DNA of 64,000 bases from positions 32,116,001-32,180,000 of the forward strand of contig CM097885.1 in the NCBI GenBank assembly GCA_044892525.1. Reading direction: 5' to 3'. The position numbers and the translations under genes were made by a program. Under the pieces are notes generated by a model. The model saw nothing but the letters and a program-made list of their open reading frames with translations, did no database searches and had not been told where the DNA came from. Below are positions 1-24,300 of the stretch, one piece after another (the stretch's first letter is position 1; the number at the start of each line of letters is the position of its first letter). Source of the DNA: Schmidtea polychroa. Lineage: Eukaryota.

Positions 1-1080
1 TCGACCTTCCGGTTGACTGGTGGCGGTTTTTGGAATTGATTTACATCGTGCCACGTTTACGTATATTGGCCTGGTGAATGGATTATTTACCAATTTCACT
101 CTTACATTGGTTTCGCCTACGAATAAGATCTCATATGGTCCTTTTCCGTTGCGTTGTAACTTTTTTGTGGTTCCTGGAATTAATTCCGGGGTTTCTATCA
201 TTACCCAATCACCTGTTTGAAACGTATGTTGCTTCACGTTTTTCTTTCGATCGTGTAAATCTTTATAACTTTCCTGGTAGAACTTGATATTTAATCCCGC
301 AGTTTCCCAAATTTCTTGCATTCTTTCCTTGAATTTCGTAACATAATCATCGATCTCCATATACTGCGATATCGGTGGTTGGTATTCCAGGTCAATTGGC
401 ATATTACATTCTCTTCCGTACATTAATTTGAATGGGCTCATTTTCGTTGATGCGTGAATCGACATTCTGTACGCCATAAGACATAGGTTTATGTATTCGT
501 CCCAATCTCGTTGGTGACGGTCGACGTAGTTTGATAACATTTGTATAAGTGTTCCATTAAATCTTTCCGTCATCCCATTGGTTTGAGGATGATACGGTGA
601 TGTTCTCAATTTTGCGATTTTGAAATAGTTCGTTACTTCGCTCATTATCTCACTCATAAAATTAGTTCCCTGATCGGTTAATATCTGTTTTGGTGTTCCA
701 TATCGGCAACATATCTCTTCTACCAAAATTTTTGCGATTGTTTTAGCTTTTTGGTCTGGCATCGCGAATGCTTCTGGAAATTTCGTGAGAAAGTCGGTAA
801 TCACTAAAATGTAAATATTTCCTTTATCTGACTCTGGTAGTGGACCAACTACGTCCATGGATATCATCGTCATCGGCTCTATTGGTACCGGCATTGGCGT
901 CAAAGGTGCTTTCCATTTCGATCCAGTATTTTTCCTGGTCGCACAAGTTAGGCAATTTTTTACCCATTCGGTTACGTCTTCGGTTAACGTAGGCCAAAAA
1001 TATTTCTGTTTCATTCTTGCTAACGTCTTTTTCGATGACATATGTCCTCCCAATCTCCCATCGTGATATTGCGTTAACAA
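1..1080 (-). other. Integrase domain (HHCC, DDE core, GPY), truncated by window edge
   Basis: YHDGRLGGH...CLTC, ISMDVVGP, LTDQGTNF, SPYHPQTNGMTERFNGTL, GKGPYEI. Confidence 0.95.
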
Positions 1081-4000
1081 CTCTTTTCGTCGGTTTTCCG
1101 GTATACACATTAATCGTTTTTCCCCATCCATTATCAGCAACCAATCTTTCTCTATAATATATCGGTGTCGGTGTTTATCCATATGTTCTTTTAATTTTTG
1201 GTCTTTCGCATATACATCTGTCTTTCCGGTTTTTACATAATCGATAATTTGTTTTAATTCCGCGTCCTCTTGTTGGTCCTTTCGCAATTGACAGAAATCC
1301 AAATCTTCCGCTACTATTAAGCATATGCGTTGCATTTCTGAATCTACCAAATCTGGAAAAATAAATCTTGACATACAATCGGCGTTGGCATTTGCTCTTC
1401 CCGCTTTGAATTTTATAAATGGGGAGTATTCTTGCAATTGCATGGCCCATCTCATCAGTCTACTGGACGCTTCTTTATGTTGCCCTAACCACACTAATGG
1501 TTGATGATCTGTGGTTATACATATCTCATGTCCCCATAGTAAGTATCGGAAGTGTTTGATAGCTTGTATTATAGCCAATGCTTCTCGTTCTGTTACCGAA
1601 TAGTTCTTTTCGTGCTTTTTGAATGTTCGACTGTAATACCCGATTACTCTCTCTTTTCCTTCATCGTCTAATTGTCCCAGAATCGCGCCTGCCGCGTACC
1701 CGCTTGCATCCGTTGCCAATAGAAATGGCTTCTTAAAATCTGGGTGTACGAGGATAGGTGCTTCGATTAGTTTATCTCTCAGCGTTTCAAACGCCTCTTG
1801 TTGTTCCTTCCCCCAAATGAACGAAATGTCCTTCTTTACTAATTCCTGGATTGGTTTTGCAATTCCTGCATAATTTTTGATAAATTTGCGATAGTATCCG
1901 CATAATCCTAGAAATTCCTGAACTTGGGTGACAGTTTTCGGTGCTGGACATGTTTTTATTTTCTCAATGTTTCTTGGATCTGGCTCCTTTCCTTTAGCTG
2001 ACACTATGTGTCCCAAAAACGTGACTTTTTCCTTTGCCCAATCGCATTTTGATGGTTTGAGTTTGAGTTTCCACTGTCTTAATCTAATAAATACGTTTCG
2101 GATATCTTCCAGATGTTGTTCAAATGTCGCTGAATAGATTAGTAAATCATCAATATATACCATACATTGTTTGATTCCATGAGTGACAAAGTTCATACAT
2201 CGTTGAAATGATGCTGGTGCGTTGGTTAGTCCGAATGGCATTTTCCTGAATTGATATAGATCTCGTCCCAACGTGAAAGCTGTTTTCTCTTTGTCCTCAT
2301 CTTTGACTTTAATTTGCCAGTATCCACTTTTAAGATCTAAAGAAGTAAAATATGCTGCCCCTTGCAACATCAATAACATCTCATTGATGTCCGGCAATGG
2401 ATAGGTATCTCTCTTGGTTACTGCGTTTAACTTCCGATAATCGATACAGAATCGTTGGGTGCCATCTTTCTTTTTTACCATGACCACTGGGAATTGCCAG
2501 GGTGAGCAACTCGGTTCGATTACTTTTGCGTCCAGCATCTTTTGTACTTCTGCTTCGGCTATTTCTTTTTGCATTTCTGCTAGCTTGTATGGTCTTAATG
2601 CAATTGGAGTTTCATCTATGAGGGGTATTGCATGTAGGGTAACATCGCATGTACCCAAGTCTAAATCTGAGATGGCGAATATATCTTTATATTCTACCAA
2701 CAATCGGTGCAATTTTTTCTTTTCATCATTCGTCAACAACATACTATCTATTGTCCATAATTCATCATCTTTGATCATCTCGTTGGTCATTTTCGGTAAT
2801 TCTATGTCCATCATTGGGGTCAATCTTCCCAATTTTTCGTTCTCATAAATGATTTTGTCTTCCTCTTCGAAATTCGTGATGTTGAGCGGTATCACTCCTT
2901 CTTGGTTTATTGTGATTATTTCTCTTGCGAGTGGTAATTCTCGTCGCTTTTCAAATGACTTGCTTGGTTCAAAGATAACTTCTCCTTCCATACCCGTATC
3001 CACTTTTATCTGACAAATCATCTGCGATTTTGCTGGTACTATTATTTTTTCTGGACATCTGATGACTGCATTCATTTTGCATATTCTACCGGTTTTGTCT
3101 TTTAAACACATGGTTGTTAAGTCAATTACGACTTCTTTTAATAATTCTGGCATCAAATCCGTTCCGATTATGCATGGTACGCTAAGTTTTGTTATTACTG
3201 CCAAATACGTTTCAATTTCGTTGTCCTGGTATCTCAAAGTAGTCCACCATCTTCCGACCACGTCCACTGTTTCTTTACTACATGCTATGATGTGAATTGT
3301 TGTTGATTCGATATCTTTCCAGTGTTTACTGGGGATTTGATTAATCACTATCGCTGATACATTAGCTCCGGTGTCTATCATAGCATTGGTTTCTTTACCA
3401 TTGATTTGAATCATAACTGTTACTGCTGGACCTCCAGGTAGACTCATCGCTGCTATTGTTCTTACGTCATCTGCTTGATCTACACTTTTGGTACGTCGTG
3501 CTGGCATATAATGCATACCGGGTTGACTTGGTAATTGCGGATACATATTTTGTGTCATGGTCAAAGCTGCTTGTGGTCCCACGATATCCGGTGGTATGTA
3601 GCTTCCATTGGCGATCCAGGTATTTGTCTTTTCCTTTTCCCAATATGGTGCCGTTTCCATTGGTTTTTCGTTTGGGTTTCTGTTTGGATATAGACATTTG
3701 TCGTTCCCGTTATCATCGTCGTCACTATCGCTGTTAGATGATTGGCTTCTAAATCGGTCCAAGAATTTTGGCTTATTCTTTTTCAATTGTCGTCTTGTTA
3801 CTTCATCGTACATTACTTTCCGGAATCGTCTGCCTACTTCTTCGTCGGTTCCTTTAATCTTTGTTAATATTTTAATCAATCGCTTTATCCGATGAATGTC
3901 TTTTGAGTGACCATGTAATACCATGGTTTTTGCTAAAAATGGTAAAAAGCCTACTATCATTTTCCAATTTACTTTCTTTTCCCGCTTGTATATATCAAAA

Positions 4001-7000
4001 CAAGCTAACATTTGTGTTAATATTACCCTGACTATCTGAATTATGAGTATGATCCCTAATATCCCGGCCATCATTTGTCCAAAAACTAAGAATCTTCCCC
4101 ACATTGCTTTCATCATGTTTGACGTGGCTTGTTGAAAATGGTCTGGCGATAGTAGCAGTTCGTAATTCGGGCCTGATTGATAATTTGTTCCCCCCGTTAT
4201 TGTAACCATATTTGACAAAATGGATTCTCGTCTGGCTGGGAAGAGTACGTTAAGTCGTGCTGTTTCTAGATCTTCTGGGGAATACATACCACCGTTTGAC
4301 ACGTCTATAGGTTTGAAATCCAGCTCTGTGGCGAGTTCTATTAATCCAAATTTCTTGGGCTCCTCGGATATGGTTTTTCCCGGTAACATCATCCATTTCC
4401 CATCGGGCCTTTCATACAAAGGTCCGTATGCATTAGAACAGTTAAAGAGATTTGGGTAGAAACCCACTGGATTCATAATTCTAGTGACTGGTTGGACGAA
4501 TCGATTTTGTCCTTTATAACGGATTTCTAATTCATTTGCACATCTCTTTTCGGGTAGTATAGATTTTTCTGGCATTCGTGCATACGTCTTGGTACACTGG
4601 TATGTGTACATTACTTCTCCTACCATTCTACCAAAATGTCCATCCGGTAATGGGAGTGATGGCATCGTGTTATCTGGGTGCGTTATCGCAATAGCTAGCT
4701 TTGTTTTCAATATTTCTTTATTCAATGAACACTCGTTTTGTATCAGATCGTAATATACTTTTTGCAAGGTCGTTTGTCCGCGATGAAATAGAAAATCCAT
4801 TTTATTATTTGCATATAAGTATAGTTTTACGTCCTCCGTTGCTATCTTTCCCACTGCTCTATCGATTATTTGTCTCGACATATAGATGCCTGCGTAATTG
4901 GTTTTATATACTATACTGTCACATTTGGTGGTTTCTTTCTCTTTGATAAATCTCATACCTAGATCTGGATCGTCTGTGATTAATGCTGTTGGTGTCTTCT
5001 GCGTTGAAAGTCTCTTTTCTCTGGGAGATGGTGGCATTGGTTTTCCATTTCGCATTCTCACCCTGTCGTTTCCATCCTCGTCGTTCTCGTTCTCATATAT
5101 TTCTCCTTTTACTTCATTGAACAAGGCACTTTTTAACAGTTGGAGTCGGCATTTTTGGGTATTAGCTTCATAGATTATAGTTGATACTCCTGTCTTGCAT
5201 ACGTTTTCTGTAGCTCTACACGCTGGGTTGGTCTTCATTTGGTAATTATTTGCGTCAAATTGCGCTTCGTATTCTTTTAATTCAACCGTATAAGACTCGA
5301 TCACTACTACTCCCGATATTACCTCGCCTCGGATCGTATACGTACCTCCGTTACATGACCCATCTGATGATTTTACTTTTCCGGATACGTAAACACTTTC
5401 GGTTTTAATCATTCCAGTTTGTCCGTGAATCGTCACTCCGTTATGCATTTTTAACGCTCCGGTTCTAAATAGCTCTTTACAGTCCTCTCGTTGTATTGAT
5501 ACGATTTCTTTGTCCAGGCCGGGTAGTATAAGAGTCGAATACGAATATTGTCCACAGTAATATGCGAGTACCTTTTTTGATACCACGCATTCCCTTGCTT
5601 GCGTTCTGATGAAATCTGATTCTTGATATACATGGTAAGTAACTTTTGTTCTTACTATGTCTAATTTGTTGGGTGATGCTTGTCTGCATTCTTCTATGTC
5701 TCTCAACGAGTATTTATCTCTCATTATCATATTATCACAATCGTAGATGGTAAAACCTGTTGCTCCACTTGTGCACAACATCCATATCATCATAGTCATC
5801 ATTAACGAATTTATCGATGCTTTTCGGCTTGCTGGGTCTTTCATGGGTAGTTCCCATTCTAGTTCATTCAACAACTTCTTCAATCTAACTTGCATCGACC
5901 TTTCTTGCTCATTTTTTCGTGGCGCTTGTATAAGTCTTTTCCATCCTCCGGCACGAATAATATGTGGTTCAATAGTATTCTCTATGATTGAAACGGTCAT
6001 TTCCACATGATTTGCAAATTGTTTATTTGGTATTTTCCTCGCAGCTAGTCCCATCAAATTATACATCAAATACGTGATTACCACTAGATGATGTTCGTCA
6101 TCATTTGCATTTGTCGTGAGCAGTTCAATCACTCTCTTCGTTTCATCCCAATCCGTTTTGGTGGTTTTCGTTTTCTCTTTGATTAACTTTGGGATTATCC
6201 CCGAAACGATGTGCCATAATTGTCTAGCTTCCGTACTGGCTACTTTCCGTTGCCACAAACGTCTAAGTTGTGGGTTTGTTATTATTAACATATCTTTGAT
6301 CAATTCTCGTATCCATTTTTCTCCTCTTTCGATCGTTGGTTGGGCTTCCTTTAGATCCCATACTATTTTATCCAATTTTTCTAATCGAACTTGCCCTTGT
6401 TCTTGCTTTAATTGTTCTTTGGTTTTGAACTCAGACTTTTCTCCTTGTTTCTTAGGTCTTCCTTTTGCCCGTTTTTCCATCATCGTTCCGGCTTCTCTGG
6501 TATTTTCGTAATTCGGATTTCTTTCGTTATCCGTTCTGGGTAATGAGCTATCGTTATTTTTTAGCCACTCATTCCATTCATCTATTATTTTATCGGTTTG
6601 ACCTTCTGGTGTTACTTTCGTTGGTTCTCTTTGCTTCTGGAATTGTTCATCCGTTTCGGTTTCCGTAGTATTGTCGATGATTTCTTTGATGTTTAGTTTC
6701 GTTGGTTGTTGATAACTCGTTGATGGCTGGTTATTAGTCCACATTTCGGCTCCTGTCGGCCATCTTACTAATAGCGGTGATCTTTCTCCTGGTTCATCGT
6801 CACTATCTTCCAGGATTATCTCTTCAACTTCTTCAGTTTCATTAGATTTACTTGGTGCTTTGTTCGGACTTGGAGTACTCAAACTGCCTTTTGTTAGTTT
6901 AGTAATTTCACTTTTCCTTTTTAACGGCTTTCCCAACGTTTCTGCCATTGTTAACACATTTGTCTCTTCCAATCTCATGGGTGTTATTCCGACGTCTGCA

Positions 7001-7683
7001 TTATCGTCTAGTGATTTTCCGAATAGTTGCAGATGGAATGGAGTTTCATATGCTAATTTCTTTTTTAATTCTCTAATCTTTGTTGTTGGATGCACCTCTA
7101 GTTCCTCGATGCTCTTGTCCGGATACTTGATTCGGATGTGATACCTCTCCTGAGTGTCTTGTGCCCATTCCTGATTTCTCCATTTTCGAATAATTTGTTC
7201 TAGCTGTTCTGGATACCATTCATTATATTGCCGGTATTCCTCTATTGCCTTTGCCATTCCTCTCAGATTGTGGATGTTCTCTGATGTCTTTAAGATGATG
7301 TTAGCCAACGCTACTACTTGGCGTTTTTGATTTTTCGCTCCCATTGCTAAGATATCGCCTAATTGTTTATATCTTTCTTTCTCTTCTCGTTCTCTTGCTT
7401 CCGTCGCTTCCTCGCCGTCCATATCAGCATATTCCCGTTCCTTTTTCCTCATTGCATGAATGTGTCTCGCTTCATTTTCGCTTTCTGATGTGACATCCGT
7501 CTCGCCTTCGTCATCTGATGTCTGTTCCCTTGCTTCCTCTTCATATTCTGGAGGTTCCTCTTCTTCTTCCTCCGATTCACTTTCTGTCTCACCAATGTCT
7601 GTTTCTACGAAGATTCCTTTCCGGATTTCCCATTCCTTATTTTCTGCATTCCACACTCTTTCCCATTGGGTTCGTCTGCAGGA
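1..7683 (-). CDS. ORF2 polyprotein (>=2561 codons, no stop in window): UBL - Bcl-2-like - signal peptide - class III-type Env - TM - protease - RT - RNase H - integrase
   Basis: Manual translation finds no stop from 7683 to 1. It is in the same frame as ORF1, directly after TGA 7684-7686. First ATG at 7452. Absent from the ORF track, probably because it has no stop in the window. Confidence 0.93.
1360..1740 (-). other. RNase H domain
   Basis: PFLLATDASGYAAGAIL, NYSVTEREALAII, TTDHQPL, ANANADCMSR. Confidence 0.95.
1930..2640 (-). other. Reverse transcriptase domain (Ty3/Gypsy type)
   Basis: SPWQFPVVMVKKKDG, RFCIDYRKLN, LDLKSGYWQI, MPFGLTNAPASFQR, YIDD at 2146-2157. Confidence 0.97.
3070..3420 (-). 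other. Retropepsin aspartic protease domain
   Basis: AMIDTGAN (DTG at 3367-3375) and downstream CIIGTDL. Confidence 0.93.
3997..5817 (-). other. Envelope glycoprotein resembling chuvirus G (class III-type fusogen), with internal signal peptide and TM anchor
   Basis: Signal SINSLMMTMMIWMLCTSGATG|FTIYDC. Motifs YSLRDIEEC, ECVV..YYCG, DGSCNGG, LYLYANNK, ECSLNKEILKTKLA, GEVMYTYQC, FVQPVTRI, NGGMYSPEDL, VLFP occur in the order typical of chuvirus-like glycoproteins. About 14 Cys; TM about 3997-4100. Confidence 0.85.
5932..6321 (-). other. Divergent Bcl-2-fold-like domain
   Basis: BH4-like WIRELIKDML and BH2-like IIENTIEPHIIRAGGWKRL. HHLVV..GGW spans 51 aa, the same as GRIVA..GGW in human BCL2. 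NWGR of BH1 is absent. Confidence 0.55.
6940..7143 (-). other. Ubiquitin-like domain 3
   Basis: YHIRIKYPDKSIEELEVHPTTKIRELKKKL...LQLFGKSLDDNAD matches the ubiquitin pattern LEV.P...I..K.K...L..GK.L.D. No C-terminal GG. Confidence 0.7.
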
Positions 7684-10605
7684 TCAGGTGCTTAATTTCG
7701 TGATTTTTCTTTGTAGTTCTTTTTCTTTTAACCATTGTTGGTGGATTTCAATTATTTCTGTAGATTTTTGATATAACGTTTTCATCCGGTCTCGTATTTC
7801 TTTTTGATAGATTACATCTCTTGTTCGAAATTCATCCATTGGTACTATCCTGATGATCTGATGATTGTCCCACATACCCAATTCGCTTAACGAGGTGTCG
7901 TCTTCCGCTCGTAATATTATTTTATCGTACATCATGACTACATCATCCACCATACCATCACTACTTTCGCTACGTACCTTTTCCGTTATCTCTTGGTTTA
8001 TCTTTGATACCAAGTCATCCACTGTACTCCGATTGCTCATTTTTATTCGTCGTTTTTCTTCGTTCGGTAACCATATGGTTATTTCCAACCTCTGTGGCTG
8101 GGTTTCTTTTAACCTTCCATATTTGTGGATCAAATTTATGGTTCTCCAATCACTCATCCGGAGCATTTCTGTATCTCGCAATCGGCTCATTAGTTCGTAC
8201 ATGGCTGGGGCTCGTCTGGTGATGAGTAAATCCCAGTTGTCTTCTACTTGTTCTTGAATTTGTTTGATCAGCTTATCCAGGTTTCGTCTCAGAGTACATT
8301 GTTTTATTTGTTCTAATTTCAATTTGATATTAAAATCATATTCTGCCTTGGCATCTTTAGCCCAATCGTAAAGGTTGGCTGGTTGTTTTTCTTTATGCAA
8401 CTTCAGTATTTGCGTTTCTCCTGGCCATATTAGTGCATCTACTAAGTGCATATCTGGTTTGATCTGTTCTCCTTGGTATTGATACAGATATTCTTTCTTT
8501 CTCGAACTTCCCAAATGTTCTCGTATCCAATCGAAAAGTTCGTCGGTGACTGTACTTTTGATCCACATTCTTTCAAGTCCTCTGCTCGTTCCGATTTTTA
8601 TTACATACCGCGTGGTATCGGCCTGCTTCATTTTTTCCATATACTTTTTTATAATTGATTTTTCCTCGTTTGGTATTAAATCTTTCTCGTTTCTTTCCAA
8701 TTTCATCACTTTTTGCACGAATCGCCTGAATGGTATTACGTCGATGAACTCTTGGTTTCTCACTACCACCGGGAGTATTTCGGCTACCTGTTTTATCGCT
8801 TCCTCCCTTGCTTTTCTCAACTTTATTTCGATATCCTCGTCTTCACTTCCACTTGTTATCTCGCTTTCGCTTTCTTCCTCTTTGATTTCCCCTTTTGGAG
8901 GTTCGCTTATTTCATTTAGCTGTAGTATTTCTCCACCCAAACTACTTACATAGTCTTTTTCTTCGTCTGACGATGCTACATCTTTTGTCCTTTTCATCAT
9001 ATTGATTTGCAAATTTCTCATCCTTGGTACTCTCTTTAGTTTCTTTCTTTCGAATATCGTTGTTTCTTCTGATTCTAATTCTTGTAGCATTTGGTGGTTT
9101 AGTTGACTGGTTTGTTCCTTGCTCTTGTTATTTTCATCTTCTGTCTCAGCTTTCGCTTTATTATGTTCTTTTTCGATTTTATCTTTTATCTTTTTCCAGA
9201 ATATTTTCTGAATTCTCTGGTTTCCTTTTAAAATCGTGGTTGAATTCTCTGTTTTCATTTCCGTTGTTGTTTCTGTTACCTTTTCTGGTTCAGTCATGGG
9301 TACTACCCTTGGGTTTTTCCCGTAATTGTAACAATACTGGCTTTTCATGTCTTTTACTAACTTCATCATATTAATTCGCAATGGTTGTTCTTGTCGTTGT
9401 TGGTTGCGTTCTTGTTTTATCTTCTCTTCCTCGGCCTGTAGTCTTTGCCATTCTTGTACATGTTGATGCACTTCATAATTGTTGAGATTTTCGGTACTCC
9501 TCATCATACGTATATTCTGGGTTTGTTGTGGTGCTGATTCCGGTCTCGGTCTCATCATTTGTTGCATCATCTGTTTCATCTGCGAGATTTCCTGCATAAC
9601 GTTCATTTGTTTTCCTTCGCTAGGGTTACTTTGTCGTTGCGGATTCGCCATATAATTATTATTTCGCTGTGGTGGTCGTTGTTGTTGGCCCCTTTCTCGG
9701 CAATCTCTGGAGATGTGACCTGGCTGACCACAGTTAAAACAACCTCTCAATTGGCATACATTTTCGGTATGTCCACGCCGTCCGCAACGATTACAATTTG
9801 AATTTCTATAGCAATCTCTGTCCCAGTGTCCTGGTTTACCGCATGTTCGACACTGCTTGTTATTGTTCATATTTCGTCGATTATTAAAATTGTTCTCATT
9901 ATTTGGGTTGCTACGATTACCATTATTCCCATTTGATCGTCCTTGTGGTGGTTTGAAAATTTGGTGCGCTCCTGGTATAAATTGATTCATTTTCGGTTCT
10001 TGATTGTTGTTATCTCCGTTATCCGCTTTCGCTATTGCTGTCGCTATCCTCCCATCCTCTTGCATAATATTCATTTGTGCTGGAAGGTGGAGCTCGCATC
10101 TTGTAGCCCAATCTATGGCTTCCTCTAATGTTTTGCACATTTGACAACCTACTGAGGCTCTTACTTCTTCTCGGCGTAATCCCTCTATGAAATAACCGAT
10201 CAGATTTTCTTCGGGTAATTTTCCATTCATTGCTTTCTTCGCTATTCTCCGCAATTCACTGGCATATAATGTTATCGATTCGTTTGCTCTTTGTTTCCTA
10301 TTTGCTAGTTCGCCCAACGCCTGGTTGATTGGCTTACTGGCTCCGAAGGTTTTCTTCAGGAATGTTTTGATATCTTCCCACTTTTCTAATTTCGTATCTC
10401 TCTCTTTAGCTTCTAAATATACTTCTAATGCGCTATCGCACAAAAACAACGGCATCCTTTTACTAATTGCTTCGGGTGTCCATCCACACACAGTGATATA
10501 AACTTCAAAATTAGTTATGAACGTTGCTAGCTTGTTTGCATTTCCATTGAACGGTTCTCCTCGGAACTTTTCTTTATACTCGTCGGTTTTTACGACATTC
10601 GTCAT
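7684..10605 (-). CDS. ORF1: Gag (capsid plus three CCHC knuckles) extended by acidic/charged linkers and two ubiquitin-like domains
   Basis: 973-aa ORF with retrotransposon-gag-like N-terminus. CX2CX4HX4C knuckles at 9811-9852, 9754-9795 and 9700-9741. Frame stays open without ATG up to 10950. Confidence 0.92.
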   Translation of the reverse strand: MTNVVKTDEYKEKFRGEPFNGNANKLATFITNFEVYITVCGWTPEAISKRMPLFLCDSALEVYLEAKERDTKLEKWEDIKTFLKKTFGASKPINQALGELANRKQRANESITLYASELRRIAKKAMNGKLPEENLIGYFIEGLRREEVRASVGCQMCKTLEEAIDWATRCELHLPAQMNIMQEDGRIATAIAKADNGDNNNQEPKMNQFIPGAHQIFKPPQGRSNGNNGNRSNPNNENNFNNRRNMNNNKQCRTCGKPGHWDRDCYRNSNCNRCGRRGHTENVCQLRGCFNCGQPGHISRDCRERGQQQRPPQRNNNYMANPQRQSNPSEGKQMNVMQEISQMKQMMQQMMRPRPESAPQQTQNIRMMRSTENLNNYEVHQHVQEWQRLQAEEEKIKQERNQQRQEQPLRINMMKLVKDMKSQYCYNYGKNPRVVPMTEPEKVTETTTEMKTENSTTILKGNQRIQKIFWKKIKDKIEKEHNKAKAETEDENNKSKEQTSQLNHQMLQELESEETTIFERKKLKRVPRMRNLQINMMKRTKDVASSDEEKDYVSSLGGEILQLNEISEPPKGEIKEEESESEITSGSEDEDIEIKLRKAREEAIKQVAEILPVVVRNQEFIDVIPFRRFVQKVMKLERNEKDLIPNEEKSIIKKYMEKMKQADTTRYVIKIGTSRGLERMWIKSTVTDELFDWIREHLGSSRKKEYLYQYQGEQIKPDMHLVDALIWPGETQILKLHKEKQPANLYDWAKDAKAEYDFNIKLKLEQIKQCTLRRNLDKLIKQIQEQVEDNWDLLITRRAPAMYELMSRLRDTEMLRMSDWRTINLIHKYGRLKETQPQRLEITIWLPNEEKRRIKMSNRSTVDDLVSKINQEITEKVRSESSDGMVDDVVMMYDKIILRAEDDTSLSELGMWDNHQIIRIVPMDEFRTRDVIYQKEIRDRMKTLYQKSTEIIEIHQQWLKEKELQRKITKLST
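7837..8091 (-). other. Ubiquitin-like domain 2
   Basis: LEITIWLPNEEKRRIKMSNRSTVDDLVSKINQEI...VVMMYDKIILRAEDDTSLSELGMWDNHQIIRIV; beta-grasp UBL pattern (TV..L...I, L.D...LS.LG). Confidence 0.72.
8392..8613 (-). other. Ubiquitin/SUMO-like domain 1
   Basis: RYVIKIGTSRGLERMWIKSTVTDELFDWIREHLG...YLYQYQGEQIKPDMHLVDALIWPGETQILKL; SUMO-like F/Y.Y.G.QI pattern. Confidence 0.55.
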
Positions 10606-11976
10606 GATTGGTGTTCTAGATTCGTCGGTTTCTTTTAAATTATCCGGTGACGTGACTAAATTTTGGGCTGATAATTCCTCGGTTGACGTTGCTAAACTAT
10701 TAGTGATGTCGGACAGACTTTCTCTGCTTCGAGATCGACTAGGGGTGTATCCGAGATTTTCTTGGTCAAATATAGGTACTTGATTGGTTCTTCTTGATCC
10801 TTGTGATATTCCTCTTTGATGTTTAATAGATCGTCCTCTTTTGAGTTGTTGTAATTCGTCTCCTGAAAATAATACGTCTCCTGGCTTACTTGAAGATCTA
10901 AGGTTGGGTTTATCCGTGATTCCTTTCTTACGCTTCTTGGTAATTAGCGGCTACTGAATTGGACGAGTTCGGTTCTGATTGTGTTTCCTTCTATAAGTAT
11001 TCTGTATGAATCTGCTACTGTGATTCTGAGGAGATTTACTAGTCCTTGACAGATGGCTGCTAATACTATGAGGTTGAATATATCGATGATTCGTTCGAAG
11101 TTGGAGATGTCGCTATCTGTATCTTCTTCCGTTCTGGAGTCTTCCGGTTGCTGTGTCTCTCGGTGCGGGTTCTGAATGGATTTATTCTTGGTCGATTGTC
11201 GATTTCTTCGAATTCCTTTTGTGCGGGTTCTGGATTGTCTTGGTTGACTGGATTGGTTTGATATCTAAAATGAAAAAATGATCTCGTGTTGCATCTGCTT
11301 ACACGACTTCATCATTCTTTCAACAACATTCGAACACAGACACCTTTTAGGTTCTGTTTATGCTTCCCCTATTTTTTATGCAATTACTTCCGCGGGTTAT
11401 AATCTCCCATCAGCCCGAAATTTTCGTCGATTTTAAATTATCTATATGGGGTAGTAACAATTATCTATAGAGTCGTAATAATTATCTATTTTTATCACTT
11501 ATAATAGGAATAGGTCGTTGTCGGTCACTGCTTATTACCCCCCTTTCGTTTTCCTAGTCCTTTTTGCGCGGTTGTCGCTGTTTTACTTTTCGTATTTGCT
11601 ATTATCTCACTCGGTTCTACTCTGGAACCAATAAAATATATTCTCCCGCTTCGCCCAAAAAAGAAAAATATTATTCCGTAGAGTTTCTCCACTTCACTGG
11701 GGTCCCTTTAATTAGTTGGTTACTTTCCTCTTTACTCATTATCATCGTTTCGCCTATTCTTTATTTTCCATTATCTCTTTAGTTCGTTTCCTTCTTCCCT
11801 TTCCTTTTTCCTTATAATCTTATTATCTTTTCCACGAGCTCGTTTATTTCCTCTCTAAACTCAAATTTTCGTAATTACCTTCTATTTGTTCTGGCTAGCT
11901 TTACTATTCCATTTCACTAGTAATTTAAATATTATCTCATTGTAGCTTAACTGCTATCTCTCGTTTTTCTAGGCCT

Positions 11977-12352
11977 TTACGACTGGCTGGCACTATTCAA
12001 CAGCTCAATCTTCTTCCTTCTGATCGGTTGGACTATTCAACAACTCGATCTTACGACTGGCTGGCACTATTCAACAGCTCAATCTTCCTCCTTCTGATCG
12101 GTTGGACTATTCAACAACTCGATCTTACGACCGGCTGGCACTATTCAACAGCTCAATCTTCCTCCTTCTGATCGGTTGGACTATTCAACAACTCGATCTT
12201 ACGACTGGCTGGCACTATTCAACAGCTCAATCTTCCTCCTTCTGATCGGTTGGACTATTCAACAACTCGATCTTAATATCTCCGAACTGGCTGGACTTTT
12301 CACAGCTCAGTTTTCGTTTCCCTTGACCGGCTGGACTATTTTACAGCTCGGC
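11977..12352. repeat. Tandem array: 4 x 74 bp (each two related ~37-bp halves) plus 2 degenerate halves
   Basis: Units start at 11977, 12051, 12125 and 12199. Shared core GGYTGG(C)ACTATTCAACARCTC. Confidence 0.95.
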
Positions 12353-12911: not shown

Positions 12912-13394
12912 TCATTCACCATAGTAGACCATATGAGTTTCTTTTATCTCGTGCTTACATATCGTGCATCTTGTTAGCTCGTTCCCGCATTCTTCGCAGT
13001 GACTGAGGTGTCCACACGGCAAAAACAGTACGCGAATAGGACGAAGTTTACAAGCAAGGCAAGTTCGTAGTAGAGTCAGTTTTTCTTGTATTTTCCGCTC
13101 GATTGTATCTGATATGGTATTTAAGGGATCTTTTATACGTTGATAATCAAGATTTAATGCTGGGTGGTTCAATCTCTCTTGATACCATTGGTACACGGTT
13201 TCCGGGTTTACCTTCCCATCTGGGTGACTTAGTCCTGTGGCTAATAACATGTGGTTGGGGACGGCTGGTGTTTGCCCGATTGCTTGTAGTATGATGTTAA
13301 TTCTTTCTCTCTTTTGTGTCAGCGTTTTAAGGGAGTCATTCTCGATGTTTATGAAGTTGATTAGTTGTTGTATCTGATCTATGAATTCCGTCAT
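12912..13394 (-). CDS. IAP-type RING (C3HC4) E3 ligase without BIR domains, possible UBA-like segment
   Basis: RTCLACKLRPIRVLFLPCGHLSHCEECGNELTRCTIC has C-x2-C-x11-C-x-H-x3-C-x2-C-x6-C-x2-C spacing as in XIAP/cIAP. LLATG resembles ILATG of the cIAP UBA. Splice acceptor lies 2 nt before the ATG; AATAAA about 120 nt after the stop. Confidence 0.85.
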   Translation of the reverse strand: MTEFIDQIQQLINFINIENDSLKTLTQKRERINIILQAIGQTPAVPNHMLLATGLSHPDGKVNPETVYQWYQERLNHPALNLDYQRIKDPLNTISDTIERKIQEKLTLLRTCLACKLRPIRVLFLPCGHLSHCEECGNELTRCTICKHEIKETHMVYYGE

Positions 13395-13692: not shown

Positions 13693-13710
13693 ATCCCGGC
13701 TGAGCCCCCA
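13693..13710 (-). promoter_or_regulatory. Primer-binding site, tRNA-Pro type
   Basis: TGGGGGCTCAGCCGGGAT, 7 nt after the LTR end (..GCAACA). Differs at 2 nt from the classic tRNA-Pro PBS TGGGGGCTCGTCCGGGAT. Confidence 0.85.
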
Positions 13711-14282
13711 AAAATTATGTTGCGGGTACACTACTCGGATGACCCCTTTCTAGTGCAACTTTAGTCTAGAGGATGAATGCCACCTCGATTTCGCCCATCA
13801 TTTATTTGGTCATCACCGAGCGGGACCCGTACATAACTTACACTCCAACATAGCACCCGTGAATTGCTTCACGTTGGAACTGTGCTATGCCGGCGAGACG
13901 CCAGTAAGCAGGTGAGCCAGCTCCTCCGGACTACTCCTTACTGAGGCCTCGACTTCCCAACCCTGACTGCCGATAGAAGGACTTACGTCTACTCATTCCG
14001 TCGCCCCATCGCAATGTTTCTAGCTGAGTTTGCCAACTGACTAATGCTCCTCCAAGTTTTATGACTCTCAATACCATTCACCAATTTCAACTCAACTGTC
14101 CTAAGATGAACACAAAAGGAAACGTATGCAGACAAAATGGTTTATTATTAAGATTATCACACAAATATACCTAACACCTATACAATAAAATTTACGACCA
14201 CCGGAAAAGAAACAAAGGTAAAAATGTTATCCGACAATGTTCGGGTCATTTCAGTGAACGAAGACTTGTTACGGAGAAGTTC

Positions 14283-15032
14283 TCATTTCTCCCACTCTGA
14301 GTCTGCCAACAGATCTTCCAAATCGAAAAATTCAGAGGCATTTTCCTCCCAGGAAACACCAGCGGCGGAGATGATTCGCCCTGAGATCACTGATGCTAAA
14401 TCGATTGCTGCAGGAGGGTTGATGACTTTGATTAGATGATCCGACGATTGCTGGTTCTGTTTGGCGGTTACGCGTTCCCGCTGTTTCTTTTTGCGTTCGG
14501 CTCTCGATAATTGCCGACGCTTTGGCTTCGATGCCGTTGGATTGGTCGGGGGTGTTGCAGAGGTAGATGCCATCACAGGTAACGCTTTACTGGTTCCGGT
14601 AAAGATGACTTCTGGTTCTTTAGGTGAGAGCTCGGTCTCTACGCACCCATGGCAGGACTTTCCGACTGGAGAAGAAGATCCGCCAGAGATATCATGATGT
14701 GCTGGGAAAAGATTACTGGCTTCATTAATTGGGATCTTCGCGATCCTCCTTGTGGTTGCTGCCTGAACGTATAATTTGTGCAGCGCCTCCGACTGCTCTT
14801 TTATCAGGCTCCTCTGCGCCCGACTCTCGGAAATCAACGCGTCTCTACAGTGCTCGCTTCGATGCAGCTTCTTCTGAGCCTCCTTCATCTGGGTGGGACT
14901 AAACCATGTCCCCTCCAACTCATCTATCCTTCTCTTATGCTTTCCGATTTGGGCCTGGAGCTCTTTGATAATTGAATTCTTGTCGGAGCAAGGAAAACAA
15001 GGTCGAAGAACGGTCTTGGAATTTGGCAACAT
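14283..15032 (-). CDS. LTR-encoded accessory protein ORF-A (249 aa): CxxC + coiled coil, second CxxC, basic patch, acidic aromatic tail
   Basis: The probable start is MLPNSK (ATG 15032), 10 nt after a strong acceptor (AG 15043-15044), not the track start at 15107. The N-terminus is conserved in the copy at 32462 (17/21 aa identical). Confidence 0.75.
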   Translation of the reverse strand: MLPNSKTVLRPCFPCSDKNSIIKELQAQIGKHKRRIDELEGTWFSPTQMKEAQKKLHRSEHCRDALISESRAQRSLIKEQSEALHKLYVQAATTRRIAKIPINEASNLFPAHHDISGGSSSPVGKSCHGCVETELSPKEPEVIFTGTSKALPVMASTSATPPTNPTASKPKRRQLSRAERKKKQRERVTAKQNQQSSDHLIKVINPPAAIDLASVISGRIISAAGVSWEENASEFFDLEDLLADSEWEK

Positions 15033-17424
15033 TTTTGAGTGACTGTGGAAAAAAAAATGAAAAATGAAAATAATTAACTCAACTGGAGTGTCACCATCTG
15101 ACCCCATTCATACTTTACAGATCATAGACAAAAATATGAGTTTACCAGTCAAGACAAGTACTACTGCACGATGGATTCTCATACCTTTTGGGTCTTTGAT
15201 TATAAGAAGATAAATCGATCAAACCCGATTCCGTACACGGAAAGGAAGGTAATACTATTAGTGAGAGAGATTCTAGATCGATGAAAAAGGATTATTTAGT
15301 TAATCCGCTTGAAGTCATTATTTCACGTTTACCGAGCATCGAGTTACATTGTTGATTTCTCCCCCCGTACGAGTGATTTTGATGAGTGTATCATATACTG
15401 GGGTCGAGTGACTATCTATGGAAAAGGGGTCCATAATGTCTGTTGATTAGTTCCTACAGGATAAACGGAATGCTATTTAAATTTTTAATTATTTATTCAT
15501 TCTCTCTAATTACTCACATATGTGTTTTGCCTGGTTTAAATATTATTTATTAATAATATTCGACATTAATATTAATGATAATTATGTCAAAAATGACATA
15601 ATTTCCGTGCCATTCATTCTACGATAATAAAGAGAGAATAATCATAATTACGATCGGGTTTAGCACTAAAAAATATTATCTTTATGATAACTGAGCACGG
15701 TATCAATGTGAGCTAGTAGCCGACCATTCCTACTAGGTAGATAAGGAAATGTCAGCCCGGTGGTTGACTATTAATCCAGAGCGGTGAAATATGATACCTG
15801 TCGGTAGTCTAATTGGTTAACAGAAATTCCATCTGGTATGTTCGTCGGATTTTTCCTGAGTAGAGGCGTGTGTGACTTTGCCCACTGTACTTGGCCACTA
15901 GGTGAGTCTGTACCTGGTGACGCATGCAGGGTGTGCTTTCACACACTTAATTATACTACAATTGTAGGTGTTAAATGTTTGCAAGATGTCATTTTCTCAG
16001 AATTTTATCTATCGCGTAATCACTCACAATTCTCCTGCATATGGCGCTGATTTACTAATTCTCACCGGATTATTGGAAAAATTATAATTATCTGTATTGC
16101 AAATGTTGGATATAGCTTGCTCCACGGGTGGATTTTTTCGTCTTTAATTCCTCAAACCTAGTTTATCGATCTACTCTCTAAGTGCTGGAGGATTTCTACC
16201 TATCCCTGCTGGATTGCCAACCCCACGAAATACTGGAATTTTATATTTAATTAACAAGATCATCGGCTAACTTGAAGAAATATATTTTTCGTGGCTCGCA
16301 TTGGTTGCATTTTTCAATTCTAAATTATTTGATGCCAATAGTTTATGTGGTTATGATAATTAATTGTATGTAACTCCTTTTATATAAAATTCAAAAAAAA
16401 TTATGATAGCGAATCATTTTATGTAATTTGAACTTTTATTTGGAACAAACTCGTTTTATGCAATTCTGAATAACTATTTGGATTAAATCATTTTACCTGG
16501 TTCTTCCCTTTATTTACAAGCAGTCATTTCGAGTAAACCTAATACTTGTATGAAGCAATCTACTTTGAACTCCCTGGCAACTATGTCTTTAAGAGAACTT
16601 TTAGATGAACGGAATAACAGTTCCGCAGGTCATAGGCTAAAAATTGGTCGGAACAGATTCTGAGTGAAAAGTATGAACATCGAAGATATGTCACAGATAG
16701 CCTCACTAAGGTTTGAACAATTTTTGACACACAACTTACATTGATGATAGAGAAAATTTAGGCTTAGAAAAACCGATATTCGAAGACGATATTGTGACAC
16801 TCTCAATCACTACGCGAATACATCAAAATTTTCCGATTCCTTTATTACATATCTTTGTTTTCAATCACTACATGACTATCAATTTCGGCCCCCATTTACC
16901 TATAGATTTTAGTCGCACCTTCAGCGATTGGACCCGTGAAGAAGCCCTCACATTTCGGCCCAATCTAGCTGCGTGATTGAAATACCCTATGTCCACCGGT
17001 GGAGCTCCCGAAGGCACCTCACACCATGACATAGAGTATCTCAACGCCACGTTTCTCGCCAAATTGAATGGTCTCCAATAATAATTCATAAAAATTAATT
17101 CATAAAAGATCGAACGAGCAAATCATTTATTATTAAGCAAATTATTAATTTAAATAAAGTATTCTAATATCAAACGAAAAGAAAAACCATTTTTTAAATT
17201 AAGAATATTATTGAACTATACGCATTACTTAAAAATCCAAACTAAGCAATCAAAAATCCTTACCGAATGATTGATACAAGTATGGGCTGAGTCGAAAAGG
17301 GTACTATGTCGAATCAGTTAATGCTCGAGTGTCGTCTAGTTCTGTAAAAATCTTTTGAATCTTGGAATTGTCCTCGTGAGTTATCGTGCGTTAGTTGCTG
17401 GAGTTCTGTTCCGTCGTAGAATAG

Positions 17425-17561
17425 ATTTACCTATTGAGGTGGTTTGATTAACAGTCACAGTTATTTAAATTTCACTTACCTATTGAGGTGGTTTGATTAA
17501 CAGTAATTGTTATGTTTTTAATGCCTGCTTATATATTAATTTTTTGTTTGCGCGGACCAAT
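17425..17561 (-). promoter_or_regulatory. LTR promoter: inverted CCAAT, TATA box and downstream splice donors
   Basis: ATTGG 17557-17561, TATATAA 17529-17535, GTAAGT at 17479 and duplicated GTAAAT at 17430. The solo copy has the same spacings (ATTGG 30955, TATTTAA 30981, GTAAG 31036). Confidence 0.7.
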
Positions 17562-18523
17562 TAGAATTGAGTACCGCTTTATTTTATTAATTTAATTTAT
17601 TTTCTTTGTTTTCGAGTTATTTCTTCTTACTTTCTTTATTAAAATTATGTTTTTATTTATTTTCCTTAATTTTCTTAGTATTTACTATATTTTACGTTGT
17701 TTTCTGTCATTCTATTGTCTTATTTTAATTTTTCTCATCTTTATATTTTTGTTTTAATTCTTATTTTCTAATTATTGTTTTTCTTATGTTTTATTCTATT
17801 TTATTTGTCAATTTATTTGTTTTTATTTTTTATTTTATTTTAGTTCAGTTTCCCTAATTCCCAACTACCCTTCGACTCAGCCCAACATATCTGTTACTTG
17901 TAATTGTTACATAATTAAATAAATTTTTGCAAAATCATATATTTTTTACAGAAAGTACCTATACCTTGATATAAGATAGGTTCCTCAAATATATAGAAAG
18001 TAGGAAAACATTTAACCACGATAATCAAAATTTTTATAATAAAAAATATTCAAAGTGGACAATGATTAAGAGTCTCATTTTAAATATCAGAAAAGAATTA
18101 AGGATGTTTCCGAATAAATTTTTTATGTTGACATTACCAATTATTCAATAAATATATACGATTTTAAGTTAATTTATGGTTTTTTTAGAATTTGTACCAA
18201 AAATTGGTAAAAATTTAGAAAACACATTTTTCACAAATAAATATCCAATCTTCATGATAATTAGATAATTATTAAATCTAAAGTATGAAAATGAGTTATT
18301 ATACGTCGTCATCCTTATTTAATTTCATTTTGACCCTTATTTAATGTCTTTTTTACCTTTATTTTTTGTACTTTGATTTTAACCCAGTGCTACAACAATC
18401 TTACTATTTCACACTTAGTCAGAAATTTTTTATCGTTCAAAAATGTTATATTTTTTATCCAATATTAAAACAAAAAATTACAAATTTACAAAATCTTTAT
18501 TCTAAACAGTAAAATGATCGCTG

Positions 18524-20216
18524 CTATAACGATTCCACGGGTTGCTGCAACACCAGGCTGGATATTTCATTGAGGAGCACCTACAAAGCAACACAACATA
18601 TAAATCACCAATAAATTCAAAGGAAAACCAACATCGATTTTATCAATCATTGAATCAGTTCGATCAATAGTTTTACTAAGAGATTCCTTAAACTGAAGAA
18701 TGTTTCCCTAATTAAATGATAGTAATGAGAATTGCATAATATTCCAAATCAGCGATTATTACTAGAGATTCGGCATAGATTTGATTGGCTGATTCATTAC
18801 TGTTGATGTTGTTATTGCTATTGGTTGAGAATTGGGAATTTCTTACATTGGTCAGTTTGTTCTTCTGCAATATTACATATTTTATGCCGATAATTTCACT
18901 ATTAATATACTTGATTCCTATTGGTCGAAATTTTTGAGTTGCGGTTGGTAAATGTCTGCATGGTACTCTACAATTATTTTCGGTTCGTAAAATTGTTTAA
19001 TAAGAGAATTGATTTCTTTGTTAAATGATTTGCTGGGTTAACTATATAGGAACACATTGGGAACTATATGGGAACACAGGGGGGGGGGGGGGGGGACAAA
19101 AGGATTATATAGGAACACAAGGAAATTATATGGGAACAAAAGAGGGACAATGTATGAACAATAGAACTATATAGGAACACGGGGGAACTACATGGGAACA
19201 CAGGGGGAACAAAAGGATTATATAGGAACACAGGGGGGACTACATGAGAACAAAAGAGGAACTATATTGGAACACAGTGGGAACACACAGGAACAAAAAG
19301 ACTATATAGGAACACAAGGAAATTATATGGGAACAAAAGAGGGACAATGTGGGAACAGAAGGACTATATAGGAACACAGGGGAACTACATTGGAACAATG
19401 GAAGACTATATAGGAAAAAGGAGGGACTATATAGGAAAAAGGAGGGACTATATAGGAAAAAGGAGGGACTATATAGGAAAAAGGAGGGACTATATAGGAA
19501 AAAGGAGGGACTATATAGGAAAAAGGAGGGACTATATGGGAACACAGTGGAAGTATAAAAAACTATATAATAACTACATGGGAACAAATGAGTGAACTAT
19601 TTGAATGAGCAATTGCTTCAATATATATATAAATTGATAATGTAACATGTCCATTTATGATAACCATTTTATAATAAAATTTTCATACCATTTCTGGTTT
19701 TTAAAAATGTTTAATATAATATAGTTAATGGGATATGATATTATTTAAAGAATGAAATTCAGTTGTAAAGTTGTAAATTACCACAACAGAAAATGGATTT
19801 GATGATAATTTATCATTTGGCTTTGCTTCCACTATAGTGACTCTGGAGTTGAACTGGATAACATCTGATTTGGCGAAATTTAAAGACTTTTTTGCATCTA
19901 GTTTAGGTAACTCGGTTGGAACTTTAAATGTATTCTGGGTTTTAGCATTTCGAATCGGAATTGGGGTCTCTGTAGTGCGGATCCTTTTAGCATTGATAAG
20001 TGGAGATGCAGTATTAAAGGAATTTTTGAAAGGAACTGACTGTTTTACTAAATTTATATTTCTTTTAAATTTATCTTTGTTAATATCTTTTATTTCAGAT
20101 TTTTTCTCGAATTTCGGATGAACAATTTCTGATAATTTGCCTTTATCACTGAAATTGGTTGATTTCACAGTACTTGCTGGCTTACTAAGTCTAGGTAATC
20201 TTGTGGAATTAAACAT
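18524..20216 (-). CDS. Four-exon host gene of unknown function (about 222 aa, K/S/N-rich, possible C-terminal coiled coil)
   Basis: Exons 19782-20216, 18763-18864, 18633-18707 and 18524-18580. All GT-AG, phase 0 and in frame, ending in TAG. Last two introns are 55 and 52 nt. Confidence 0.6.
19030..19560. repeat. Purine-rich minisatellite with 6 x 21-bp core (GACTATATAGGAAAAAGGAGG) and a poly-G run
   Basis: Core units about 19403-19528, degenerate GGAACAC-containing units on both sides, G run from about 19079 to 19095. Lies in the first intron of the orphan gene. Confidence 0.9.
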
Positions 20217-21393: not shown

Positions 21394-24300
21394 CAGCGCC
21401 GGTTTGAGATAATTATACGCCCCAGGCGAAAATTATAAAAAGCGCCCTATTTTAAAAATTAGGTACAAAAATTATGATAAAATAAAAAAGTTTAACAAAA
21501 AACAATCCATTTATTACTTTATTTCATTTTTTTCGATTGACATATATATAAAAAAAACAGAATTTATAAGAATGATTTTTTCCTGGCTTTCATGTCTGCA
21601 AATTTTTCTATTGCTGCCTCCAAATTTAGGTTTGCTACAACATTATTTTCAATTGAAATAATGGCCAAATTATTCAACCTATCTTCCGTCATAGTAGATC
21701 GCAAATACGTTTTTATTAGTTTTAATTTACTAAAACTTCTTTCACCACTCGTAACACTAACAGGAATTGTTACGAGGATTCGTAAAGCCACCCACAGATT
21801 TGGTACTGTACTTTTCAAATTATTATCATTGATAAATTGTAAACATATTAAAGGATCTTTAACATCATCTGGTACCAATTGCTTCAATGATTCGATTTCC
21901 TCGCACAATTCTATTCCATTTATATCACTACTGGCCTCATTTGTTAATTTCAGATGTAAATCTTTGCAACTCTTCAGCAAATCACAACGATTTTTATTAT
22001 TGTGAATATTGAACAAAAAACCCCACGAATCTTCGAAATCTTTCATTTGCTGAAACCTTTCTGATATACATATCAACGATTGATCCAGCATAACATTAAA
22101 AACATGATTTTTATAATATTTTTCTGGGTCATTTACATCTGGAGTTTCATCGTCACACTCATAACTAAATTGTTTTTGTCGCCTTCTGATTCTTACAGCT
22201 TTAAATTGTGCGTTCACGTTTAATAGCGCAGCGAGATCTTTGGCCGATTTTAAAGCATCAGAAAAACCGGAGTCTCTATAATTTTCTAGAAAAATCTTAC
22301 AATTCCGAAGAAGCTCGATGGCGTTACTCATATCAAATGTAGCTTTTTGCATGGATTTGCTGACAATATTAAATTTTGACAAAAGTACGTACCAGGCAGA
22401 TAATGTTAACAAAAACTCGAAATCTTCTATTTTTTCAGATAAAGAGCTAGCTTCTGAAACAACTGCAGCATCTAATATTGTGTCTTGCAACTCATTTAAT
22501 GCGTTTCTAATTTCCGTGATTTCAAACATAATTGCTTTAATGCATTCGATTCTACATTCCCACCTCGTTTCACTTAAAGGTTTAGGATTTAATGATTTAA
22601 TATGTTTTTTCAATATATTCCATCGTCCAACAGATGCAGCAAACAAAGTATAAATTCTTTGAACATATCCGAAAAACTTTATGCACATTATTGAAGAAGA
22701 AACACTATCACCAATTAGTAGGTTAATTGAGTGACAACCGCAAGGCATAAAAAACGCTCTTGGATTTTCTTTTAAAATTCTAGCTTGCACTCCTTTAATT
22801 TTACCTTTCATATTAGCGCCGTTATCATATCCTTGGCCTCTACAGTTTGCTAATTCCAAATTGAATTCTTCTAAACTTTCACAAATATCATCATATAATC
22901 CTTTTCCAGTAGAATCAAAAACTGGTTTAAAGGATACAAAATGCTCTTTTATTTCCATATCCTCAACATCATAAAATCTTAACATTATGGAGAGCTGTTC
23001 GATATGGCTTATGTCAGGTGTGCAGTCTAAAATAATCGAAAAATATTTCGATTTACGAACAGAATCCAAAATATGACTTCTTGTCATATCACCAAGTGTA
23101 CTTATTAATTCGTTTTGTATAGTTTTTCCACAATAATGAACATGAATTTCTTGTGAGACCACCCTGCGCAAATGCTCATTTAATGGTAAATCAAATTTTC
23201 CTAGAAGTTCAACAAGGCCTAAAAAATTTCCATTATGCGGAACAAATAACTTATCACAAGAACCCCGAAATGCTAAATTATTTTTTGACAAAAATAATGT
23301 TATGTTTATTAATCTTTCTAGTACCTTTTTCCAATTATATTTTTCTTGGACTATCAAAGACTGCAAATTCTTATCAATAGTTTTATTGCCCTTTAATCTT
23401 AATCGAGTTTCTATCCAGTTTTTTTCACATTTTAAATGTGAAACTGACCGTTCGTGCATTTTCAAGCTGTCGTGAATATTTTTCCAATCCCATAAACCAG
23501 ATTTGGCTAGATTTGACCTACCTGATGGATCAAAAAGTTTGCAAAAAAAACAAAATACAGAATTTTTGGATTCTGAATAGTGCAACCATTTTCTTAGGAA
23601 TTTTTCACCATTACTTATTTGACGATAAAAAAGCGAATTGGAAAAGCTTCGATTATTTTCATCTCTTGGATAAATATGTTGTTGATTACACCTTTCTTCG
23701 TTTCCATATAAGTCAGTTACAACTATATGGTCAATTTCCGTATGTTTTAAATTTTGTGGCCATAGCCCAATATCATTATAATTTAAAATATTTTCAAATA
23801 CAGAATGAGTTGAATCACAAGGAACAATTATTTCAGTTCCGTGAGAAGACATTAAATTATCCTCATTGATAATATTACAATTTTCAGCTTCTGATGACAC
23901 ATTACCTATATCGTCCTCTGAGCTTGAAGATGTTGACTCGAAATGTTGATTATCATCGGCTACTGATTTACTGGAATTAAAATATTTCAATATTTTATCG
24001 TGCTTATCAGCTTGTTGTTGTCTATTTATTTTTCGTTTCCGATATTCATACCCACTCAATTTTTTTGGTGGCATCTTAGCTATGGCATAAATTTATATAA
24101 ATATATTATATATTTTCCAATATATTTTTAAAAAATGATCTTAATCTTACCTTACCTCTTATATATTTATATTTTTAAAACAGAATAGGAATACAAATTT
24201 AATTTGAATAAACTGCAACAACACAACACATTAGTTAGACACTTGAAACAAAAAAATTGTTAAAAAAAACTGGTAGCTATAGATGTTAATTTAACTCGCA

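Follow-up and report, generated by a model that had tools for sequence, protein, structure and literature searches.

Three predicted ubiquitin-like domains, each behind a helical block, in the Gag-Env spacer of a Burro-type planarian retrotransposon

Planarian genomes harbour many Burro-type giant gypsy elements, whose polyprotein is least well understood in the spacer that separates Gag from Env. One such element, a long terminal repeat (LTR) retrotransposon of ~30,363 bp in total, runs along the minus strand of a 64,000-nucleotide stretch of Schmidtea polychroa DNA (GCA_044892525.1, contig CM097885.1, positions 32,116,001 to 32,180,000) and past its start. This whole stretch is called the window, positions are counted from its first letter, and all features of the element given below lie on the minus strand. 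The Gag-Env spacer of the element, about 1,300 residues long, raises the question of what three ubiquitin-like domains (UBLs) are doing inside a retroelement polyprotein. An initial annotation had suggested that they act together with the RING protein of the element as an E3 ligase, adaptor or decoy system, or that they aid budding through the endosomal sorting complex required for transport (ESCRT). Here, we present evidence that the three are integral, non-conjugatable UBLs, with folds that are predicted, and that each belongs to a repeated unit whose other half is a helical block. We propose, with a probability of about one half, that they are non-conjugated, non-canonical docking surfaces on protease-released accessory proteins, most likely for the control of ubiquitin and cell death.

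The three segments are real and had been correctly placed: UBL1 (8392..8613), UBL2 (7837..8091) and UBL3 (6940..7143) are each predicted to adopt a beta-grasp fold. In the fold search, the predicted models have the topology strand-strand-helix-strand-strand-strand and superpose on ubiquitin-family chains, and the UBLs are less than 30% identical to any chain listed in the structure search. UBL2 has an extended first helix, and its top listed structural matches are UBX domains; polyproteins of bovine viral diarrhea virus (BVDV) are also among the fold-search matches. Ubiquitin clusters appeared in the ESM Atlas only at 0.80-0.86 and serve as leads only. The C-terminal Gly-Gly is absent after all three UBLs, as the initial annotation had stated. 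Among 17 UBL ends checked, a single one lies near a Gly-Gly, a few residues past UBL2 in unit 2 of the MATH-bearing family P0156, and this is not kept in the window family. Without a terminal Gly-Gly, the three UBLs of the window would be neither conjugated nor cut by deubiquitinases (DUBs) in the pestivirus manner. Pestivirus inserts need a near-intact ubiquitin with Gly-Gly for DUB cleavage, and the earlier analogy with them fails for domains that lack the dipeptide and are deeply diverged.

The surface by which ubiquitin is usually recognized has also been lost. The L8/I44/V70 patch is the surface bound by ubiquitin-interacting motifs (UIMs), UBA domains and proteasome receptors. Upon alignment to host ubiquitin, this triad is kept in 0 of 18 Burro UBL rows, an alignment in which UBL1 and the C-terminal columns are less sure. 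The position equivalent to I44 differs among families and carries a polar residue in UBL3; the residues equivalent to G47 and K48 are retained in UBL3. The Burro domains thus differ from other integral (type II) UBLs, such as those of Rad23/ubiquilin, ISG15 and UBX proteins, in lacking both the triad and the UBX loop motif, in their low identity to listed chains, and in being always paired with an upstream helical block.

This helical block, of ~70 residues, precedes each UBL in every family seen, and the module as a whole lies directly after the nucleocapsid in each of them. In unit 3 the block (7159..7383) is modelled as four helices at a predicted local distance difference test (pLDDT) score of 81-89. 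The block of unit 1 (8623..8835) has three helices in the model (pLDDT 50-71), the last of which is in register with the sister units, and that of unit 2 (8107..8373) is longer and modelled at low confidence, with the last helix alone aligning to sister units. Further copies comprise five units in three sister families of the genome G000 and seven library proteins, the latter being the 7 of 150 library matches that were taken as relatives of the module; the remainder were mostly ubiquitin-repeat proteins (three read). A profile built from 12 sister units matches window unit 3 across block and UBL (E 8.6e-13), unit 2 across the last helix and the first half of the UBL (E 0.003; 3e-5 for P0156), and unit 1 at E 0.015, and a profile of the five units alone matches ISG15 (E 2.5e-5). 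For units 1-2, no relative turned up in word-index protein searches. Taken alone, the blocks of units 1 and 2 fail to match a block-only profile, so their homology rests on position and on the last helix. Copy number of the unit is 1, 2 or 3 across the sister families. P0156 (L054; a 4,791-residue frame) possesses all three units (33% and 36% identity) and carries its MATH domain between units 2 and 3.

Whether the three UBLs arose by internal triplication or by independent capture, an alternative posed in the initial annotation, was addressed with a tree of 28 rows that included the 18 Burro UBL rows and ubiquitin rows. Each window UBL groups with the UBL at the corresponding position of P0156 (99/95, 99/97, 93/82), and a branch (99/98) separates 18 of 18 Burro rows from the ubiquitin rows. 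An old internal duplication that preceded the split of the window family from P0156 is the simplest reading of these sequences, and we favour it over independent capture because of the shared upstream helical block and the series of one to three copies. Independent capture may formally have occurred, as the outgroup holds no other integral-UBL families, and the single origin that a triplication would imply is unproven. Recent tandem duplication is ruled out: no pairwise likeness exists among the three window UBLs (z at most 0.6), hhalign comparisons between units give E 0.03-0.09, and 0 of the 20 largest direct-repeat families lie within the UBL region.

The UBLs are maintained by strong purifying selection and are as constrained as the capsid. 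Of six copies fetched from among the most divergent, the three with an unbroken frame were compared, all within one subfamily at ~90% protein identity. Nonsynonymous divergence (dN) was 0.023-0.052 for the UBLs and 0.031-0.034 for the capsid, whereas the post-Gag linker reached 0.147-0.159; synonymous divergence (dS) in the UBLs was 0.56-1.23, near saturation.

How such domains might act is suggested by where the polyprotein could be cut. One candidate protease site, an eye-drawn motif aligned to a match in P0156, precedes unit 1 (8992..9006), and another, with an aligned motif match in P0002 and P0156, lies between the piece containing units 1 and 2 and unit 3 (7447..7461). The strict form of the motif occurs five times in P0001, where shuffling gives a mean of 0.36, and seven times in P0156, where the expectation is 0.91. 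Its matches lie at aligned places, among them the border of capsid and nucleocapsid and the beginning of the protease. A looser form contributes one further match, likewise shared, at the Env signal. We infer from these matches that spacer pieces may be released: the element protease would free a ~510-residue piece bearing units 1 and 2 (plus the MATH domain in the Burro1-like family), and a ~550-residue piece bearing unit 3, an AT-hook-like motif and a Bcl-2 fold. The AT-hook-like motif (KGRPKK, 6450..6465) is present as first described and occurs at the same place in 6 of 8 representatives, being absent in P0003 and P0005; the Bcl-2-fold domain is predicted at 5914..6339. The freed pieces may act as adaptors on host ubiquitin and cell-death machinery, alongside the IAP-type RING, the TRAF-like open reading frame (ORF) and the Bcl-2-fold cargo of the element, and the outcome would be a host cell that stays alive and permissive during replication of the element. 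In the window copy itself, translation would terminate past UBL2, at a stop codon at 7686.

As the element also encodes an IAP-type RING ORF and a TRAF-like RING+MATH ORF, it is plausible that the UBLs take part in controlling ubiquitin or cell death. To this extent the original proposal is supported, whereas a decoy working through the canonical surface does not fit domains that lack the triad. The RING ORF lies upstream of gag (12912..13394), with the RING at its C-terminus (zf-C3HC4_3, E 3.6e-11), and is 27% identical to a RING ORF at the same place in P0156. The BIR+RING region of Burro1 protects stem cells from apoptosis according to a 2026 study, as cited in the accessible part of PMC13465017. 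No BIR domain was matched in the scanned ORFs of the window family or the P0156 family, a scan that did not cover spliced or short exons.

Several points weigh against this reading. The target of the docking surfaces is drawn from the neighbouring genes alone. UBL1 is marginal in a non-circular test, and units 1 and 2 are poorly modelled (mean pLDDT 52.6, from an alignment with three sister rows). The sequences on which the cleavage motif was scored are also those from which it was drawn by eye; the strict form has no matches in P0003, P0004, P0005 or P0054, and the looser form also matches inside UBL1 and UBL2. The linkers are likewise under purifying selection (dN/dS 0.03-0.13, in three related comparisons), and most deep forks of the tree are weakly settled. 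Finally, the AT-hook-like motif points to DNA rather than to the control of ubiquitin.

The last of these points leads to a different, tentative and on balance unlikely explanation, in which the helical block would be a TFIIS N-terminal domain (TND) in degenerate form. Unit 3 and the AT-hook-like motif would then make up an LEDGF-like tether, of the chromatin or elongation kind, that the element encodes for itself, the UBL offering the partner surface. LEDGF combines its helical domain with AT-hooks, and the motif occurs in most Burro representatives. With a profile of 12 host TNDs, helical blocks take the top three ranks among 322 segments, and in the reverse search 5 of the 12 TNDs fall in the top 10 of 320; the best single E, however, is 0.005, and the decoys were unmatched for helix content. 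By eye, helix order and a terminal aromatic-plus-basic pattern are similar, and both are small helical bundles, but the faint cross-ranking does not amount to a significant profile match, the profile-profile score of 11.5 lying within the shuffle range (9.0 +/- 1.2, maximum 12.0). The short central Ile-Gly motif of host TNDs is missing from the block, and no Med26/TND match was found in Pfam or among 45 PDB sequence matches to an 889-position profile. The block was crowded out of every fold-search list, so that the lack of a family match there is uninformative. Lentiviral integrases are tethered by TNDs, and these are right-handed bundles of five helices against the four predicted in the block (PMC9987994, in the part accessible to us). 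The fuller version, in which a Burro-encoded TND-UBL-AT-hook protein released by the protease would read host elongation factors or the element's own integrase and steer the element to transcribed chromatin, seems slightly less likely again; if true, Burro would encode for itself a job for which lentiviruses borrow host LEDGF. As a separate observation, ~14 near-identical TND-bearing ORFs, which we take to be IWS1-like, are clustered at about 164-172.5 Mb of G000:C2 and on C31.

Rather doubtful, too, is the idea that the module aids particle structure or folding, as a capsid-envelope spacer, matrix-like layer or solubility tag with no host partner. Its constant position right behind the nucleocapsid, the lack of an evident matrix domain ahead of the capsid in the Pfam scan, and its capsid-like conservation would all suit such a role. 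A variable number of one to three copies, with MATH inserted among the units in one family, is nonetheless a better fit for an adaptor than for a lattice, and Gag is separated from unit 1 by several candidate cleavage sites.

We consider it improbable that the UBLs mimic ubiquitin, whether by binding proteasome, DUBs or UIM proteins in the manner of a decoy or E3 adaptor or by recruiting ESCRT for budding. The predicted ubiquitin fold, the presence of RING and Env within the same element, and the G47/K48 equivalents of UBL3 are in keeping with mimicry. Proteasome, decoy and ESCRT suggestions are all weakened, however, because none of the three UBLs keeps L8/I44/V70. Binding of the proteasome or of UIM proteins through the canonical surface, as first envisaged, is contradicted by this loss, nothing speaks for ESCRT-dependent budding, and the candidate cleavage sites would separate the UBLs from Gag. 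Slightly less probable still is a UBX-like adaptor role for UBL2, suggested by its structural matches, in which it would recruit the p97/VCP segregase, e.g. to extract or remodel a membrane-threaded polyprotein, as all matches are far under the cut-off and PI3K_rbd scores equally (E 0.009), the strand 3-4 loop lacks in alignment the proline motif that is a feature of UBX domains, and that half of the unit-1/2 model has a pLDDT under 50. The genome does contain, as an unrelated observation, an intronless and diverged p97/VCP-like ORF (L062:1-1821 (-), G000:C2:57996243-57998063; a 787-residue frame), the N-domain of which is 50-65% identical to homologues; two other CDC48_N matches lie in short frames.

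The docking-surface reading must also be set within the element as a whole. The 5' LTR (13718..17887; 4,170 bp) has TG...CA ends and a 4-bp target duplication, its ends and flanks having been inspected, and its 3' partner lies past the window start at G000:C1:32103525-32107707. The two are ~99.6% alike (blastn: 99.96% across 2,576 bases and 99.0% across 1,608). Seven nucleotides past the LTR is a primer-binding-site-like stretch (13693..13710), which presumably resembles tRNA-Pro. A single frame then extends from 10950 to past the window edge with one interruption, the stop at 7686-7684. It encodes Gag (9697..10605), with a capsid region (Retrotrans_gag, E 9e-10) and three CCHC zinc knuckles identified by eye (zf-CCHC, E 1.2e-11); beyond the spacer come a signal-like segment and Env, a mononegavirus-type fusion glycoprotein (3985..5814; Monjiviricetes_fusion, E 1.8e-70), with a transmembrane helix at about 4074-4018 in a hydropathy scan. 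The signal segment falls below the hydropathy threshold in the window copy and above it in three sister families. Protease, reverse transcriptase, RNase H and integrase follow (1..3417, Pfam scan) in a frame that continues out of the window; within the ~200 residues between protease and reverse transcriptase, no dUTPase-like domain was matched in Pfam at E up to 1.

The family is abundant: 40 of 40 scored DNA matches are 98-100% identical, and among 150 listed protein matches, 92-100% identical, about 59 by hand count carry one 4,732-residue frame. The in-frame stop between UBL2 and UBL3 (7684..7686) is present at 1 of 20 loci, the window copy alone. It is therefore a private lesion of this copy, and programmed read-through at 7686 is ruled out.

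On the 3' side of the element, just past the window start, lies a 1,038-residue ankyrin ORF; frame lengths suggest that sister copies carry it at the end of ORF1. The 3' cargo beside the window start (L052:6660-9776, 4666-6102, 3417-4523, 2824-3303 and 1928-2497, all -) consists of this ankyrin ORF, a TRAF-like RING+MATH ORF that looks complete, and three ORFs that lack a clear match in Pfam. Two further features were noted in the element, a 274-residue ORF within the LTR (14283-15107), with a coiled-coil look, a basic stretch and no Pfam match, and a 74-bp tandem array of about 4-5 copies (11903-12346) between the RING ORF and gag.

This organization places the element close to a described system. 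Burro/GYPSM1 of dugesiid planarians is more than 30 kb long, with one huge ORF, three CCHC knuckles, MATH, ankyrin repeats, a Ubi2/SUMO-like motif between MATH and BCL-2, and a mononegavirus-type Env in frame between BCL2 and protease, and it has been proposed to interfere with apoptosis and ubiquitination (PMC6431247, as far as its accessible text goes). BURRO1 RNA rises upon RNA interference against smedwi-2 (PMC8532177, likewise in part). The window element is alike in its length of more than 30 kb, long LTRs, Gag-to-integrase ORF1, Gag with CCHC knuckles, UBL before a BCL2-like domain, mononegavirus-like Env before the protease, and ankyrin. It differs in that Burro1/GYPSM1 has MATH inside ORF1, whereas the window family has none within its 4,732-residue frame (P0001/P0002) and carries MATH only in the separate downstream TRAF-like RING+MATH ORF. 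From its domain order the window family is a sister of Burro1 and not Burro1 as described; P0156, which is abundant in G000, appears to fit that description better. Where the accessible text of PMC6431247 gives one Ubi2/SUMO-like motif, the window element has three UBLs, each behind a helical block. By position the published motif is probably UBL3, because the MATH domain of P0156 lies between units 2 and 3.

A whole-word search of the literature, a weak one, found no description of three UBLs or of the helical-block module; Figure 2A of PMC6431247 and the supplements of other papers may show further UBLs. Already in print, then, are one of the three UBLs, probably UBL3, and the overall architecture; new as far as found are the repeat module and how old it is, the series of copy numbers, and the disappearance of the canonical surface. 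The result refines a known element and reveals no new system. Binding to the proteasome and cleavage by DUBs are no longer the leading readings, and the defined module, copy series and likely piece boundaries provide small soluble units for expression and pull-down.

Ubiquitin folds inside viral or retroelement polyproteins are the point that Burro has in common with pestivirus inserts and with BEL/Pao elements. The BEL/Pao elements of the S. polychroa genome carry a near-intact ubiquitin ending in Gly-Gly that could be a DUB-cut spacer, whereas the Burro UBLs are deeply diverged and lack that ending. Judged by their sequences, BEL/Pao elements are a second, independent retroelement lineage with captured ubiquitin. 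A link between the Burro UBLs and strong ubiquitin matches in long ORFs of G000 was ruled out, as the three loci scanned, out of 10 fetched, are all BEL/Pao gag ORFs and 0 of 10 matched P0001/P0002. These gag ORFs of BEL/Pao type (DUF1759), which contain one or two units of near-intact ubiquitin, are L031:2367-6413 (-), L032:3674-7858 (+) and L033:2550-6008 (-); that of L032 also has a dual-specificity phosphatase, and that of L033 has EAP30/Vps36 and proteasome-subunit pieces in frame.

Some features outside the element were also observed. Beyond the frames of Burro elements, G000 has many short Bcl-2-like ORFs in multiple copies, and in several of them a stop interrupts the match. In the window, an intronless ORF with F-box and Arf-like parts (33311-34309 (-)), which we take to be FBXO4-like, lies between inverted arms (~28535-29134 and 35165-35750; 79-95% complementarity) and is possibly the cargo of a gene-carrying terminal-inverted-repeat element. 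A 21-bp tandem array with degenerate flanking repeats occupies 19037-19599, and two open ORFs look transposase-like by eye, a hAT-like one of 842 residues (21564-24092 (-)) and a pogo-like one of 439 residues (41964-43283 (-)).
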